From assembly GCA_963847705.1 (NCBI GenBank), contig CAWKBC010000032.1, positions 1-64,000 of the forward strand: DNA of 64,000 nucleotides, written 5' to 3'. The translations under genes and the position numbers were made by a program. Shown one piece after another: positions 1 to 10,285 of this stretch. The stretch is from an uncultured Pseudomonadota bacterium. Its GTDB lineage: Bacteria; Myxococcota_A; Polyangia; Fen-1088. A model generated the notes under the pieces. It had not been told where the DNA came from. It ran no database searches and worked only from the letters and a program-made list of their open reading frames with translations. Numbering within the stretch: the first letter of the stretch is position 1; every line of letters begins with the position of its first letter.

Positions 1-281
1 GACGTCCTCCGGCTCGGCGGACTCCTCGAGATGGATGACGATCGCTCGGTGGTGTGCCCCGGGGCCGGCTCCATCACGGAAGGCGCCAGCTCGGGGCCCT
101 CCGGCCCGTCTTGCAGGTCGCCGGAGATGGCGCTGGCGGCCATCAGCGACAGCCCCCCGAGGCCCAGCGCGACGCTCCAGTAGAGAAAGGCCGCCACGAA
201 CAAGAGCGGCATCCAGGCGACCCACCGGGTGGAGCGCGGGATGACGGTGGACGAGGCCAAATGCTCCCTCTGGTCGTACAT
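1..281 (-). CDS. Hypothetical membrane protein, partial (runs off the window start)
   Basis: My translation from ATG at 281 is MYDQREHLASSTVIPRSTRWVAWMPLLFVAAFLYWSVALGLGGLSLMAASAISG, containing one hydrophobic helix. It lies directly downstream of clpX and is not in the ORF track. Confidence 0.5.
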   Translation of the reverse strand, partial: MYDQREHLASSTVIPRSTRWVAWMPLLFVAAFLYWSVALGLGGLSLMAASAISGDLQDGPEGPELAPSVMEPAPGHTTERSSSISRSPPSRRT

Positions 282-307
282 GCGAATCCCTCCGTGATGC
301 GTGAAGG

Positions 308-1585
<1,278 letters not shown>

Positions 1586-1695
1586 CTAGAAAAATGTAGC
1601 ACAGGTCCGGGTACGCAAGCGGCCGCTTGTGCCTGAGGGCGGCTTCTTGGCGTTCTTGACCCTTCCGGATACCGTATGGAAACAAAAGACCTCCC

Positions 1696-1884
1696 ATGAC
1701 CTCCGATCTCGACGGCGACGATCCAGAGTATGATCTTGATGTCGAAGAGAAGGATCGAGCAGAGGCATCGCTACGGAGATTGGCGCGGGACCTCTTGAGG
1801 CAAGGAAAACAGAAGGAACGGCGGAAGGTGCTTTCCCGAGCCGTCGAGATATCGAGACGTAAGTCGAGGCGGGCTCATCAATGA
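1696..1884 (+). CDS. Small hypothetical protein (62 aa, acidic N-half, basic C-half)
   Basis: ORF overlaps the next ORF by ATGA (1881-1884); A/T-richer than the flanks. Confidence 0.55.
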   Translation: MTSDLDGDDPEYDLDVEEKDRAEASLRRLARDLLRQGKQKERRKVLSRAVEISRRKSRRAHQ

Positions 1885-2684
1885 AAAGACCCGACTTCAA
1901 GATAAGCGCATCACCTTCGACGAAGGAGCAATACAGGGACCTTCTCTGCCGGGACTACTCAGAGACAGCCCTCGAAGAGACTCTTGCGCTTTTCAGGCGA
2001 GTGCTCGAGACCAGCGGCTACCGGATTATCTTCGCCTGGGAGGAGCGTACTTCTAGCCGAAAGCGACCCTACGAGATTCCCGTCGCCGCAAACGACTACC
2101 TGAAGGAGTTCCTCGAGCGGGCAAATGCCAACTTGCCCGCCGAAATGCCAGATGAGCTCCACGACAAAACAGGCCTCGAACGTCGGGCTCAAGAGGCCGC
2201 CGTCTTCCTCACCTTCCAATCGCGCGTGACATTTCAGGGCGATGCTGGGTTCGTGCGCGATGTTCAAAGCCTACTCTTCCAGCAGTGCGTTCACGCCCTC
2301 TCGCCGCGACTGATGTCTCGTCATCTCAGCGAGGCGAACGCATTCTTGCTGCACGCTCTCTACGCCCACGCGCAGCTTGCCTGGACGGACGTTCCCGGGC
2401 ACCAACACTACCTCCTGAGCGTGCTTTTCGAACATCTGGAGGACAGGACAGCGGCTCTACAGTTCCTGCGCGCGTCGCTGGAGAATTCATCTCCCGAGGA
2501 GCATGACTTCTTGACCAAAGCACAAAGCTACTGGTCTCAGCTCATCGAGGCTGGCAAGCGGAGCGATGCGAAGGCATTCATCCTGGATTTGTATCGCCGA
2601 GCGGCGCCCAAAGACCTTGCTGAGGTTCAGGAGCTTGTCGACGATACCTATGCCCTTGAGGGCAACCTCAAGCGCGCATCCTGA
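1881..2684 (+). CDS. Hypothetical 267-aa helical protein with a TPR-like C-terminal half
   Basis: Long ORF with natural protein composition; helix-pair pattern HYLLSVLFEHLEDRTAALQFLRASLE; atypical codon usage. Confidence 0.75.
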   Translation: MKRPDFKISASPSTKEQYRDLLCRDYSETALEETLALFRRVLETSGYRIIFAWEERTSSRKRPYEIPVAANDYLKEFLERANANLPAEMPDELHDKTGLERRAQEAAVFLTFQSRVTFQGDAGFVRDVQSLLFQQCVHALSPRLMSRHLSEANAFLLHALYAHAQLAWTDVPGHQHYLLSVLFEHLEDRTAALQFLRASLENSSPEEHDFLTKAQSYWSQLIEAGKRSDAKAFILDLYRRAAPKDLAEVQELVDDTYALEGNLKRAS

Positions 2685-2689
2685 GCTCT

Positions 2690-2838
2690 TCAGACGTCGT
2701 GGTCGACGAGGCGCCGGTCGCTGCGCGCTTCGAGGCCGCGCAGGGCCTCCAGCTTCTCCTTGATGGCCCGAGCGTTCTCGGCCGCGCTCTGCCCGTGCGC
2801 CTCGGGCTTCAGCCTCCAGAGGACCAGGTGCTTGACCA

Positions 2839-2839
<1 letters not shown>
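2690..2839 (-). pseudogene. Internally deleted Dabb (stress-responsive A/B barrel) family gene, 49 aa
   Basis: GTG start overlaps the clp[39 protein letters not shown] resembles the Dabb N-terminus and [12 protein letters not shown] the C-terminus; the central half is missing. Confidence 0.65.
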
Positions 2840-3474
<635 letters not shown>

Positions 3475-3489
3475 GGATTGTCCCTTTCC

Positions 3490-4876
3490 TTAGGGCTTTT
3501 TCGCGGAGGGAGTCTTTTTGGCTTTTCCGCTGGAGGCAGCGGCGGCGGTTTCCAGGCGGGCCTGCTCCGGTGTGACGATCAGGGAAGGCGCCGCTTCGCC
3601 GTCGGTGATCTTAGCCTGCGAGATCAGCAGTTCAAGCGTCTTCTGTTCGCGGATCTGCGTCTGCAGCTGGTGGATGCGATGATCCTTCTCCAGCTCGGCG
3701 CGCAGCTGCTTGGGGTTCTCGTTGCGCGCTTGCGCCAGCTCGGCGATCCGCTTTTGCACGTCGGCGTCGCTGGCGGTGATCCCCTCGCGCTCGCCGATCG
3801 CCTGCAGCAGGATCGCGCCCCGCGCCTCTTCTTCGGCCTCGGTCTTCACCTCGGCGCGCATCTTGGCGTCGTCGACCGACTCCACGTCGACGCCCATCAT
3901 CATGAGCTGGCTCTTGGCCCGGTTGACGATCGCCTGCGCGTAGCGATCGACCAGCGCGGGGGCGATGGGAAACTCGTTGCGCGCGACCAGCTCCTTGACC
4001 AGGGCCCGCTCCAGCTCCCGCTTGATGCGCGTGCCGTCGGTCTCGGCCAGCTTCTCGCGCACCTTGGCGCGCAGCCCGTCGAGCGTCTCCGCCTCGCCGG
4101 TGTCCTTGGCCAGCTCGTCGTCGAGCGCGGGGACCTGCTTTTCGCGCACCTCTTTGATGCTGACGTGCAGGTGCACGTGGCGCCCGGACATCTCGGCCGG
4201 GACCCCCTCGGCGGGGAGCGTGTAGTCGACCTCGATTGGCGCGTCGCCGCCAATCGGCTTGCCGCGCAGGCGGCTGGCCAGCCCGGGCAGCGGGCCGCCC
4301 ACGTCGTCCTCGAGGTCGACCATCAGCTCGCGCTTCTTGATCTTGTGCTCGCCGACCTTGCCGGAGACCTCGGCCCGCACCAGATCGGCCTCGCCGGTCT
4401 CCTTGCGGGCGTCGACCGGCTTGAACTGCGTCATCCGGCGGCGGTACCCCTCCAGCGCCTCGGCGACCTGCTCGTCGGTCACCTGGGGCGGCCGGCGGTT
4501 GAGCGGGATGCCGGAGTAGTCCTTGGGCGTCACCTGCGAGCGAACCTCGACCCGCGCGGAAAACTTGAAGGGGGCGCCGCTCTTGATCTCGATCTCGGCC
4601 ACGGCGGGCGGCGCCACCGGCTGGATTCTGATTCTCCTGGATGGCCTGGCCCAGCGAGCGCTCGACCAGCTCGCGCGCCACCTCGTCCTCGACCTGGCGG
4701 CGGTACATCCGCTCGAGAATCGCCCGCGGGACCTTGCCGGGGCGGAACCCGGGCAGCTTCACCTCACGGCGCAGGGAGTCGTAAGCCTTGTCCAGCTTTG
4801 GCGCGACGTCGGCCCAGGGGAGCTCGAACTCGACCTTTTTCTCTACCGGCGACAGGTCTTCAATCGTGATCTGCAT
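3490..4876 (-). CDS. tig: Trigger factor, split by a 1-bp insertion at about 4626
   Basis: The N-terminus with GFRPGKVP is in ORF 3632..4876; the PPIase and C-terminal domains (PALDDELAK) are in ORF 3490..4617. Removing one base restores ENQIQPVAPP. Canonical tig-clpP-clpX order. Confidence 0.92.
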
Positions 4877-4990
4877 GGAAAGGGGCCTTGTCTACCCTCG
4901 CCTTCCCCCTGGCGCAAGCGTTGCGCAGGCGTTGCGCGATTTCGCCTTGCACGCCCGCGGGGGTTTCGGTCAGCATAGGTCCCTTCAATC

Positions 4991-6640
4991 ATGGGTCTCG
5001 CCGGATTCACGCTCGCTGATCGATTGGGGGCCAAGTCGTCCCCGTGTTCCGTTCCTGGGTGCACGCGCACCTGGATCTCGATCGCCGGGGGCAAGGGCGC
5101 CAAGCTCGGCGGGCGTGGTGCGGCCAATCCGGCCGATCCCGCCTCGTCGATGTGCGATCCCTGCCGCGAGAAGTTCTCGCGGGTGACCGACGCGCAGCGC
5201 CCCTGTGACCGCCCGGGCTGCGACGGAACCTGGACCTGGAGCGCCAAGGACCAGCTGGAGGCGTTCGCCACCAACCGGCAGGCGCCGCGCGGAATGTGCG
5301 CCGGGTGCGAGGGAAAGCTGGCCGCGCTGGCGGACCAGCAGCTCCCCTGCGCCGTCCCCGGCTGCACGCGCACCGCCGTCTTCACCAAGCGGGCGCAGCT
5401 CCTGGCCGGTGCGCCCGAGGTCGAGCTTGCGACGCCGGCGCTCCGCTGCGTTCAGTGCGAGAGCGTCTACCGCAAGCTGAAGGACCGCGCCGTCAACTGC
5501 GGCATCAACGGGTGCAAGCAGAAGTGGAGCTGGAGCGCCGACGAGCAGATCCAGGCCTATGCCAGCGGCCTGTCGAACGATCCGCCCCGGCGGATGTGCG
5601 AGGCCTGCAAGGCCGACTTCGGGGCGATCGCCGACCGCGAGGTCCGCTGCCGCACCTCGGGCTGCAAGAAGACCTGGGTCTGGAATCGGAGCGATCAGCT
5701 CGACGCCTGCGTGGCCCGCAAGCCGACCCCCAAGGCGCCGCACCGGATGTGCGAGAGCTGCATCGGGATCTACCAGGGGCTGAGAGACGTCGAGCGCCCC
5801 TGCCGCCGCAGCGGCTGCAAGCGGACCTGGACCGACAAGCGCGGCGGCCAGCTGGCCCGGGCGGTGCGCGGCAAGACCGGCGATCCCTATCCGCAGTACT
5901 GCGAGATCTGCGCCAAGGAGATGGGCGATCTCGAGGATCGTCAGGTCGCCTGCAAGACCGAGAACTGCGAGGGGACCTGGACCTGGACCAAGCAGGCCCA
6001 GCTCGCCGCCGGCGTGCGGCCGGAGCCCAAGGTCGAGGAGAAGCTCGAAGAAAACGGCGCCGACAAGGTCGAGCACAAGGTGCAAGACACGACGGAGGCG
6101 AAGGGCGTCGAAGCCGAGGTCTCGCCCGCCGGGGAGGCGGCGGATGCCGCTTCGGCGGCGGTTCCCGGCACCTCGGCCATCGACGCGGAAGCTCCGGCCA
6201 TCGTCGCCGCCACCGCAGGCGGTGACAGGACGCGGGGCGACAGGTCGGGCGGCAAGCGGGGGCGCAACAACAAGAAGAAGCGGCGCCGGGAGATCCGTCC
6301 GCCCGAGCGCGTCTGCCAGTCCTGCAGCGACTTTCTCAAGGACAAAAAGACGATGGAGATCCCGTGCAAGACCTGCCGGACGCCCATCTACTGGCCGCCC
6401 GAGAGCCAGCTGCAGACCCACCTCGGTGCCTGGGCCGCCCCGGCGATGTGCGGCGCCTGCAAGCGCGACGCGATCGAGGCGGCGCGCGCCATCGAGCGCG
6501 AGGCGTTGCGCGCGGCCGTCACGGCCGCCCAACCGGGTGGCGCCCCGCACGCCGAGGGGGCGCCCGAAGCAGTCTCGGAGGCAGTCGCGCCCACCCCGGC
6601 TCCCGAGCCGGCGCCAGAACCGTCGCCCGACGCGAACTGA
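4991..6640 (+). CDS. Cys-rich protein with eight tandem zinc-ribbon (zf-trcl-like) repeats
   Basis: Repeated D-x3-C-x4-C-x3-W-x-W-x4-Q...P-x2/3-C-x2-C motif; GC3-rich codons. Confidence 0.8.
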   Translation: MGLAGFTLADRLGAKSSPCSVPGCTRTWISIAGGKGAKLGGRGAANPADPASSMCDPCREKFSRVTDAQRPCDRPGCDGTWTWSAKDQLEAFATNRQAPRGMCAGCEGKLAALADQQLPCAVPGCTRTAVFTKRAQLLAGAPEVELATPALRCVQCESVYRKLKDRAVNCGINGCKQKWSWSADEQIQAYASGLSNDPPRRMCEACKADFGAIADREVRCRTSGCKKTWVWNRSDQLDACVARKPTPKAPHRMCESCIGIYQGLRDVERPCRRSGCKRTWTDKRGGQLARAVRGKTGDPYPQYCEICAKEMGDLEDRQVACKTENCEGTWTWTKQAQLAAGVRPEPKVEEKLEENGADKVEHKVQDTTEAKGVEAEVSPAGEAADAASAAVPGTSAIDAEAPAIVAATAGGDRTRGDRSGGKRGRNNKKKRRREIRPPERVCQSCSDFLKDKKTMEIPCKTCRTPIYWPPESQLQTHLGAWAAPAMCGACKRDAIEAARAIEREALRAAVTAAQPGGAPHAEGAPEAVSEAVAPTPAPEPAPEPSPDAN

Positions 6641-6696
6641 CCCCGCACGAGGGGCGTCTCGCTCCCGGGCCGATGCTCCGCCTCGACGGAGCGCGG

Positions 6697-7086
6697 TCAG
6701 CCGGCGGCGAGCGCGCGCGCCAGGGGGTAGTCGGCGGGGAGCAGGTCCAGCTCCGGCAGGCGCGTCGCCTCGACCCAGGCGATCTCGGCGACCTCGCGCG
6801 CGTGCGGCGTGCCGCGGGCGATCGTCGCCGCGTAGACCAGCATGTAGAGATCGAACTCGGGGTAGGCGTGAAAGACCACCTCGTGAATGCGGCCGACCTC
6901 GACGTCGCAGGCCAGCTCCTCGCGCACCTCGCGGGCGAGCGCGTCGGTCGGCGACTCGCCCGGCTCCACCTTGCCGCCGGGGAACTCCCAGAGGCCCGGC
7001 ATCGGCTGGTCGGCCCGCCGCCGCGACATGAGGACGCGCGTTCCGTCGCGCACCAGCGCGGCGACCACCAGCTTGCGCGGGCGCAT
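6697..7086 (-). CDS. MutT/NudG-like NUDIX (d)NTP pyrophosphohydrolase
   Basis: WEFPGGKVEPGESPTDALAREVREE Nudix box; LLPAD near the C-terminus. Confidence 0.93.
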   Translation of the reverse strand: MRPRKLVVAALVRDGTRVLMSRRRADQPMPGLWEFPGGKVEPGESPTDALAREVREELACDVEVGRIHEVVFHAYPEFDLYMLVYAATIARGTPHAREVAEIAWVEATRLPELDLLPADYPLARALAAG

Positions 7087-7092
7087 CGCCCT

Positions 7093-8800
7093 TCAGCTCA
7101 CCCGCGGCGCCGGGCGGCCCGGGCCGGCGGGGGCCGGCGTGCTCGCTCCGCGGGCGGTCCGATCGATGAGCGACATCATGTCCTCCAGCCGAAACGGCTT
7201 CTGGATGACCACCGCCACCGAATCCTCCAGGAACTTGCGCGCGTCGCTGGAGAAGGCGCCCCCGGTGACGAACACGAAGCGATCGGCGAGCGCCGGGAAC
7301 CGCTCGCGGACGGCCGCGAAGAGCTCCATCCCCGAGACCTCCGGCATCTGCAGATCGCACAGCACGACGTCGAAGGCCACGTCGCGCCCGAGGATGCGCA
7401 GCGCCTCCGTCCCCCCCAGCGCCGTGGTCAGCTCGTGCGCCTCGCCGAGCATGCGCCGGTAGGCCTTGAGCAGCAGCGCCTCATCGTCGACCGCCAGCAC
7501 CCGGCGGCGCGGGTAGCCGCGGGTCGGCACCGGCACCGGGGTGGCGGTGCGCTCCGGCGCGCTGCTCTCGTCGGCGGGGAGCCGCACGCGGAAGGTCGCC
7601 CCCTGGCCCGCCCGGCTGTCCACGACGATCTCCCCGCCCAGCGTCCGCACGATCCCCAGCGAGATCGGCAGCCCGAGTCCGGTCCCCATCCCGCGCGGCT
7701 TGGTGGTGAAGAACGACTCGAAGATGCGCGGCAGGACCTCGGCCGCGATTCCCGGCCCGTTGTCGGAGATCTCGACGACCACCTCCCGGCCCTCGTCGAA
7801 GCTGCGCACGGTCACCAGGTTGCGCCGGGAGCCCGCCTCGTCGAGCGCCTGCGCGGCGTTCAGGATCAGGTTCAAGAACACCTGCCCGAGCCGGGGCGCG
7901 CTGGCCCGCACCAGGCGCTTGGCGCGCAGGTCGCGTTCCACCCGCGCCCGGTACTTGAGCTCGTTGCGCAGCATCCCCAGCGCCGAATCGATCGCCGAGT
8001 TGACGTTCATCGGCACGATCGTCTCTTCGTCGCTGTGAGAGAACGACCCGAGATCGCGCACGATGCGGTGGATGCGGGCCATCCCCTCCTTCGACTCCTG
8101 GAGGATGACGTTCGCTTCGAACAGCAGGTCCGAGATCCCGCGCCGCGCCGCCTCGACGTCGGGATCGCGCAGCCGCTCCTCGACCAGGCGCAGGTGGCCG
8201 GTCAGCGCCTCGATGTTGGCCAGCACGAAGGCGGCCGGGTTGTTGATCTCGTGCGCCACGCCGGCGGCCAGCAGGCCGATCGAGGCCAGCTTCTCCGCCT
8301 GCAAGCGGCCGATCTCGCGCTCGCGCTCGTCGGTCGCGTCGCGCACGTAGAGGACCGCGCCGCGCCCCGGCAACGGATAGGCGCGCACGGCGAACGCCCG
8401 CCCGCCCTCGGAGAGGCCGCGGTCGGCGCTGGCGCCGGTGGAGATCGCCTCGCGCGCCGCCGCCTGCAGCTCGGCTTGCAAACCACCGCCGTAGAGCCGC
8501 GCGCCGATGGCGTTGGCGATCTCCAGCGTGCCGTCGGGGGCGACCAGGCAGACGCCGTCCTCGAACACGTCGAACGTCTCCCGCAGGACGTCGCGGCCGG
8601 CCCCCGGAGCGCCCGCGAGGGATGAGGACGCTGACGGCGATTCCAGCGCCGCCAACCGCTCGGGTCGGAGGACCACGAAGTCGTAGCCGTGCTCCCCGAG
8701 CTTCGTCAGCGCCTCGGCGGCCGACCCCACCGTGTCAGTTCGATGACGCCCCCGTCCAGAGCCCAGGACCTCGGCTGCCGCCAGCGCGGAGCCCGGTGGG

Positions 8801-8826
<26 letters not shown>
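7093..8826 (-). CDS. Hybrid sensor histidine kinase (degenerate REC, PAS-like, HisKA, HATPase, REC)
   Basis: AGVAHEINNP H-box, NLILNAAQA, DNGPG, FFTTK, GTGLGL; C-terminal receiver VDDE...DLQMP...KP. Start inferred at MARILLVDD. Confidence 0.9.

Positions 8827-10285
<1,459 letters not shown>

Follow-up and report, generated by a model that had tools for sequence, protein, structure and literature searches.

Within a 64,000-nucleotide stretch of DNA from an uncultured bacterium of the class Polyangia (contig CAWKBC010000032.1 of assembly GCA_963847705.1, positions 1 to 64,000; hereafter the window), we identified a gene whose product is built almost entirely from eight tandem four-cysteine, zinc-finger-like units. 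This finger gene is a near-universal, single-copy core gene in its own family and in some other Polyangia families, and its capped, fixed-junction, eight-unit architecture is a new arrangement of a known but uncharacterised module. For this architecture there is no model in four profile libraries and no matching solved structure, and our literature searches, which covered few subscription papers, returned no description of an eight-unit finger protein. What might such an array do? The best explanation, which we put forward tentatively, is that the protein forms an RNA-binding zinc-finger rod.

A first-pass annotation of the window had described an open reading frame (ORF) with eight four-Cys units, and this ORF is real; the three units quoted there agree with the translation. 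The 549-residue protein has 33 cysteines, 32 of which form 16 pairs and hence eight units. The first pair of each unit was said to be mostly C-x4-C, and this is true of seven of the eight: units 1-7 follow the pattern C-x4-C...C-x2-C, and unit 8 alone follows C-x2-C...C-x2-C. The two pairs lie 24-30 residues apart in seven units and 115 residues apart in unit 7, in which, as was also described previously, a long Ala/Glu-rich insert terminates in a basic patch, KRGRNNKKKRRR. The whole unit 7 loop ranges from 53 to 175 amino acids among relatives.

A further regularity of the array lies between its units. The linker from the last Cys of one unit to the first Cys of the next is 13 residues long in all 413 junctions from close relatives (59 proteins, out of 121, whose Cys pattern was clean) and in 183 of 189 junctions from distant ones (27 cleanly patterned representatives out of 150 listed at 50% identity), against loops of 19-175 residues within the units. 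So constant a linker implies a rigid array. The earlier term 'modular' captured the tandem units, but it understated this fixed junction. When 1.84 billion entries were searched with a profile of the unit, 176 representatives with at most nine matched stretches were found; the full-length representatives mostly contain eight units, one contains nine, and a second group contains about six. Across lineages, a unit finds its best match at its own position in 28-44% of cases for units 1-7 and in 83% for unit 8 (chance, 12.5%). Because the units keep this positional identity, the array probably descends from one ancient eight-unit ancestor rather than from repeated expansion. A short motif resembling F-x-L-x-D-x-L, found ahead of unit 1 in distant relatives as well, may form a cap for the array.

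A search of 7996 candidates yielded 358 relatives at E ≤ 0.001; among the best 120 of them, the named ones are each a 'Polyangia bacterium, hypothetical protein'. These homologues and their conserved Cys columns argue that the ORF has not arisen by chance. When 110 of the proteins were aligned, Cys filled 3433 of the 3520 cells in the 32 ligand columns, and the remainder were 47 gaps in N-terminally short sequences, 37 Asp residues at one position and 3 Gly residues. The sole common substitution, Cys to Asp at one site in 37 of the 110 proteins, fits metal ligation better than disulfides, and each four-Cys unit would hold one metal ion, presumably zinc. Columns conserved at 90% or more make up 35 of 50 in unit 6 and 35 of 55 in unit 8, and position-specific conservation is high throughout units 5-8. 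The redox-sensing scaffold once suggested for this protein finds little support, since conservation reaches well beyond the 32 cysteines.

Within the class, the finger gene was found in 171 of 401 genomes, usually at a single locus that shows 5-8 unit matches. Its presence divides sharply by family: 69 of 71 genomes carry it in its own family and 64/71, 16/21, 12/14, 3/3 and 2/2 in five others, with none in four further families (0/33, 0/25, 0/67 and 0/23). An even draw of 301 genomes from the phylum contained three carriers, each of which belongs to this class. Among cultured bacteria, Nannocystis exedens, N. radixulma, N. bainbridge and Pseudenhygromyxa sp. WMMC2535 have the six-unit form, and an eight-unit form with an added SGNH domain comes from records labelled Lentisphaeria and Verrucomicrobiota. 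The guanine-plus-cytosine (GC) content of the gene (69-72%) is like that of its neighbours, on which ground a recent transfer was rejected, and no close relative of the protein was found on viral contigs. No sequencing run contains this strain (best share 0.21). RNA-library contigs of relatives span parts of the finger gene; such contigs cannot demonstrate transcription, and two of the three RNA runs appear to be one data set. Two copies are present in one assembled genome, the first beside tig (the trigger factor gene) and the second with no tig in the 2.8 kb upstream (L059 and L061), which could reflect duplication or a binning mix.

From which module was this array built? The first-pass annotation had pointed to PF13451 (then zf-trcl), which Pfam has renamed zf_Tbcl, 'probable treble clef domain', and this kinship is borne out. 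The finger protein reaches the cut-off of no family in Pfam or NCBIfam and has no match in PADLOC or PHROGs, and Rfam gave no match in window positions 1-9000. The whole chain does not match PF13451, and a search of the genome with PF13451 was negative. Examined repeat by repeat, as had been proposed, unit 4 does match PF13451, but at 16.6 bits, under the cut-off of 24. Among 98 aligned units (five from the window and 93 picked by pattern from 24 loci), PF13451 was the top Pfam family, with 16 at E ≤ 0.05, and its cut-off was exceeded in two eight-unit relatives, by one unit at 29.3 bits and by another protein at 24.8 bits. A profile-profile comparison (hhalign) of the unit with 12 canonical zf_Tbcl sequences of the same class gave a probability of 87% and an E-value of 4e-6 over 45 columns, with Asp, the aromatic pair, Gln, Gly and Pro in register. 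In the 98 units, part of which were picked by a pattern requiring the aromatic pair, the two aromatic sites are conserved at 99% and 97%, Q at 89%, P at 92% and K/R at 76%. Neighbours in the ESM Atlas, at 0.81-0.83, are taken as leads only. On these sequence comparisons, the units are distant homologues of zf_Tbcl.

The two share, column for column, the layout D-x3-C...aromatic-x-aromatic-x4-Q...G...P-x-R-(x)-C-x2-C. They differ in that zf_Tbcl has two C-x2-C pairs, which unit 8 alone fits, and in that the finger units have a Gly before the second Cys (in seven units), W-x-W in place of F-x-F, and one extra residue before the second pair. In canonical proteins, zf_Tbcl is accompanied by a CxxC-x17-CxxC domain (PF23477, zf_Tbcl_2). 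That domain shares the four-Cys site with the finger units but is a single small domain with x17 in place of x24-30 spacing and no direct profile match to them. The accessible part of one report describes zinc binding, measured with inductively coupled plasma mass spectrometry, in two small CxxC-x17-CxxC proteins of Methanosarcina (PMC12704099). Only 3 of 36 own-family relatives have canonical zf_Tbcl proteins; in other families these coexist with the array, which is therefore not a simple replacement for them. Canonical zf_Tbcl proteins of the same class (L099, L102, L104 and L106) carry a repeated Y-R-(S/A)-P-x-F motif in the disordered linker of their two zinc domains.

The AlphaFold model of a single unit (pLDDT 89.6) comprises a knuckle hairpin, a helix, a loop and a helix that starts at the second Cys pair, and the whole-chain model (mean pLDDT 79, pTM 0.55) repeats this fold eight times, with pLDDT of about 85-97 for units 2-8, 57-95 for unit 1 and less than 50 at residues 351-427. 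The insert and the tail are predicted to be disordered. A zinc ribbon carries both Cys pairs on beta-hairpin knuckles (compare PMC4506424). Because the second pair opens a helix in both models, the units are not zinc ribbons; the ribbon label did not stand, and the present Pfam name likewise says treble clef. The available parts of PMC4999995 and PMC4506424 describe the classical treble clef as taking two ligands from a knuckle and two from a helix start. The models predict this origin of the ligands for the finger units as well, with the classical fold's primary beta-hairpin replaced by a helix and a loop. Foldseek gave no significant fold match (best E 0.01, with TM-score under 0.15, for the whole model and E 1.6 for the unit model), and VIA-align found none of 48,161 chains at Z ≥ 5 for either model. 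Its best match for unit 4 was HPV E7 CR3 (Z 2.8, root-mean-square deviation (rmsd) 3.0, 41 aligned), small domains scoring low in general, and the best for the whole model had Z 3.5, rmsd 4.9 and 56 aligned. The weak top rows, a ribosomal large-subunit chain that we take to be eL34 (Z 3.5) and ZAD domains (Z 2.8-3.2), point to RNA binding and to protein binding in equal measure, and we drew no evidence from them.

Nucleic-acid binding is the best, if unproven, reading of this array, to which several indirect hints point. The specific case for RNA is drawn from the basic patch, an RNA-binding parallel to a domain fused to some relatives, a helicase fusion, a neighbouring gene and the basic charge of the arrays. 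A patch of at least seven Lys/Arg in 15 residues occurs in all 120 own-family unit 7 inserts examined and in all 64 six-unit relatives, compared with 6 of 212 ordinary loops, although the latter are shorter than the inserts and the count favours the inserts accordingly. In the six-unit proteins, the insert sits in the unit matching position 3 or 5, not 7 (64/64, on a coarse positional mapping with small score gaps), so that two separate gains are probable. Of 27 representatives, 26 have a net basic array, and the median charge over eight units is +14. In the SGNH fusions (n = 17), the catalytic Ser site holds Asp or Glu in 13, Gln in two, Cys in one and Ser in one, and the catalytic His survives in 2 of 16, never together with Ser; we deduced that the domain is a pseudo-enzyme. 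(The family is annotated as 'hypothetical protein' in Polyangia and as 'SGNH hydrolase' in Lentisphaeria, though the catalytic residues are gone.) According to the accessible text of PMC10792757 and PMC5785220, the OSK domain of Oskar is an RNA-binding, dead SGNH fold with Asp at the catalytic Ser site. The Lentisphaeria form likewise has an SGNH fold with Asp or Glu for the catalytic Ser in its C-terminal domain, and the window protein differs from Oskar in having no SGNH domain. One protein of 1769 residues (P0212) combines about six units, TPR repeats and a DEAD/DEAH helicase in one polypeptide. Lastly, at three distant loci the gene directly upstream of the finger gene encodes a radical-SAM protein, which we take to be of the MtaB/MiaB type that modifies tRNA.

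How might the array bind RNA? Eight zf_Tbcl-related modules, with one zinc each, would stack through their 13-residue junctions into a stiff rod. The last helix of one unit may pack on the hairpin of the next, and the cap motif may supply the packing helix for unit 1. The rod would grip a long structured RNA, aided by the flexible Lys/Arg-rich loop, and this ligand would probably be rRNA, tRNA or another housekeeping RNA in the course of maturation. The gene would be expressed steadily, as a near-leaderless mRNA from a promoter of its own, and its place beside tig would be a habit of one family. A broader reading, which taken as a whole we consider unlikely, is that an old capped eight-finger zinc solenoid, present in several deep lineages of two phyla, reads a long structured RNA finger by finger as a bacterial parallel to arrays of the TFIIIA type that evolved independently from a single zf_Tbcl module, its partner modules (the basic loops gained twice, the Oskar-like dead esterase and the DEAH helicase) recruiting it to ribonucleoprotein assembly.

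Several observations, besides the length of the ordinary loops, weigh against RNA binding. No function is known for canonical zf_Tbcl from which one could be borrowed. Many eight-unit relatives, most SGNH fusions among them, lack the basic patch, and eight Zn(Cys)4 sites, at a formal -2 each, would about cancel the median charge of the arrays. The dead SGNH domain showed no link to OSK in Pfam or PDB sequences; a specific kinship was rejected, and the parallel is an analogy only. The helicase fusion is a singleton, P0212 being the sole case among 1388 candidates, and a recurring fusion was rejected. The three radical-SAM genes are 49-56% alike and possibly represent one lineage, and distant neighbourhoods are otherwise unrelated. 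Any RNA role is also not universal, because the finger gene was not found in 230 of the 401 class genomes.

The main alternative, which seems possible, if rather unlikely, is that the rod is a protein-binding scaffold in the manner of LIM, ZAD or the treble clefs of ClpX and CsfB, with its fingers or its C-terminal unit docking partners and the dead SGNH domain serving as a further docking module. Treble clefs often bind proteins, as the accessible parts of PMC5890618 and PMC4506424 relate; the strong conservation of units 5-8, an array near neutral once metal is bound, and the TPR and dead-enzyme fusions would fit as well. The basic patch in all 184 insert-bearing proteins examined and the helicase fusion point instead to a polyanion, no partner gene accompanies the finger gene across lineages, and a free-standing copy of the dead SGNH domain in its own genome was rejected (best E 0.66). 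If the polyanion were DNA, the protein would either belong to the nucleoid-associated proteins or read sequence, in parallel with the C2H2 arrays of eukaryotes, which we regard as improbable. Bacterial zinc fingers are mostly single, and long finger arrays are best known from eukaryotes. With those of TFIIIA, CTCF and KLF/WT1, the present array shares tandem zinc modules, a fixed short linker, position-specific fingers and a C-x4-C knuckle resembling the ZNF410, WT1 and KLF fingers over about 20 residues (E 7e-4), and the basic patch suits DNA as well as RNA. The C2H2 likeness is, however, limited to the knuckle: C2H2 fingers are Cys2His2, those described here are Cys4 units of 50 residues with two helices, and the resemblance is analogy, not homology. 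Rapid turnover of finger number and paralogue expansion are absent, one copy per genome is the rule, the promoter region holds no conserved operator-like repeat, and the fusion partners are not DNA-acting. We give still less credence to a zinc store or a metal or redox sensor whose 32 thiols release zinc on oxidation, for which metallothionein and McsA are models. The 32 conserved cysteines would suit this role, and two genomes, both from a single distant family, have the finger gene directly behind, and on the same strand as, a gene for a putative heavy-metal exporter with ten transmembrane segments (ArsP_2, PF11449; L092 4483-5502 (+) and L094 1596-2615 (-)). Yet conservation of non-ligand residues, unit number and linker exceeds what storage needs, the exporter link concerns one family only, and a fixed set of window genes, tested as own-family neighbours, includes no metal-response genes.

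The position of the gene raises one more alternative, that its product serves trigger factor or ClpXP as a cofactor or adaptor and is regulated jointly from the common intergenic region; this appears very improbable. As the first-pass annotation stated, a 114-bp divergent intergenic region (4877-4990) separates the finger gene from tig, which it implied to be a link with tig-clpP-clpX. In close relatives the synteny holds: tig is head-to-head within 400 bp at 76 of 79 loci (two of the three exceptions have less than 470 bases upstream), and the accessible text of PMC5890618 describes an N-terminal treble clef of ClpX that binds adaptors. At eight distant loci, however, none of tig, clpP and clpX is nearby (0/8), and in a six-unit genome tig lies 1.8 Mb off on the same contig. 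Among relatives, the length of the intergenic region ranges from 100 to 359 bases, but two separate, back-to-back promoter-like sites are kept. The link to tig is thus confined to one family and reflects back-to-back promoters. A stock sigma-70 scan of the intergenic region came up empty, and the promoter-like sites were derived from the comparison of relatives. The finger-side pattern (TTG-N3, 17-18 bases, CA-N3-T) occurs at 65 of 76 loci compared with 1.65 expected by shuffling, and the tig-side pattern (TTG-N3, 17 bases, TAGAC-like) in 37 of 43 relatives compared with 0.02. The -10-like box of the finger gene lies 9-23 bases ahead of the ATG and a Shine-Dalgarno-like word is present in 7 of 76, which together suggest a near-leaderless mRNA, with a transcription start predicted at about 4983. 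The direct repeat GCGTTGCGC reported in this region does occur twice (4918 and 4929), but it is not conserved: one copy was found in 1 of 43 relatives' intergenic regions and two copies in none. The window has six copies against 3.2 expected, a count reached in 15 of 100 shuffles. The repeat is private to this genome, and we rejected it as an operator.

Features of the finger gene and its surroundings in the window
Feature	Positions	Strand	Remarks
tig (trigger factor), divergent neighbour	3490..4876	-	context
Promoter-like site of tig	4889..4917	-	TTGCGC, 17 nt, TAGACA; putative
Promoter-like site of finger gene	4947..4976	+	TTGCAC, 18 nt, CAGCAT; 14 nt ahead of ATG; putative
Finger gene, eight four-Cys zinc-finger-like units	4991..6640	+	single open frame, 549 amino acids plus stop
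N-terminal cap motif F-x-L-x-D-x-L and unit 1	4991..5188	+	cap a predicted short helix; C19, C24, C55, C58
Units 2-6	5189..5935	+	residues 67-315; 13 residues between units; each with C-x4-C knuckle hairpin, W-x-W strand, helix with Q, loop, P-x-R-x-C-x2-C helix
Unit 7, first half	5936..6025	+	C321, C326
Variable Ala/Pro/Glu-rich insert in unit 7 loop	6026..6253	+	predicted disordered
Lys/Arg patch closing the insert	6254..6289	+	KRGRNNKKKRRR; residues 422-433
Unit 7, second half	6290..6349	+	C442, C445
Unit 8, distinct terminal unit	6350..6526	+	C459, C462, C487, C490; long conserved C-terminal helix
Variable Pro/Ala/Glu tail	6527..6637	+	predicted disordered
NUDIX gene, convergent neighbour	6697..7086	-	context; tail-to-tail at 60/79 loci

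The first-pass annotation had also noted the absence of a signal peptide, and we agree: no hydrophobic leader was found by hydropathy (best 19-residue value 1.04), nor was an export leader found in any of 120 relatives. The multiheme cytochrome and ferredoxin motifs CxxCH and CxxCxxC are both absent from the finger protein; CxxCH occurs somewhere in 26 of 120 relatives and is thus not a family feature. In the surrounding sequence, the frame of tig is shifted by one extra base near 4626, which is probably an assembly error because the relative L011 and contigs of runs X1, X15 and X16 lack this base. Between clpP and clpX, on the opposite strand, lies an orphan ORF of 267 amino acids (1881-2684, +) with a lower GC content of 56-62%; it is present at 1 of 79 related loci and has no Pfam or PHROG match and one weak PADLOC match (E 0.014). 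The clpP-clpX gap differs in length from relative to relative and may be a site of insertion. At two distant loci, an FHA-LuxR gene lies downstream of the finger gene. In the SGNH-fusion lineage (L150-L178, e.g., L150 5001-8515), an OmpA-family gene and then a NUDIX gene, often fused to radical-SAM, usually follow, and a NUDIX neighbour is thus found in two phyla; of eight Lentisphaeria-type NUDIX neighbours, three match the window NUDIX best and five match another paralogue.

A conserved finger array of eight units with a fixed junction, belonging to the core genes of its lineage, would be a repeat protein of a new architecture and possibly a new programmable scaffold for binding RNA or protein. 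It would also offer a first way into zf_Tbcl, which is widespread but has neither a known function nor a solved structure. Because this uncharacterised family is represented in cultured bacteria, by the six-unit form of Nannocystis, it is testable now.

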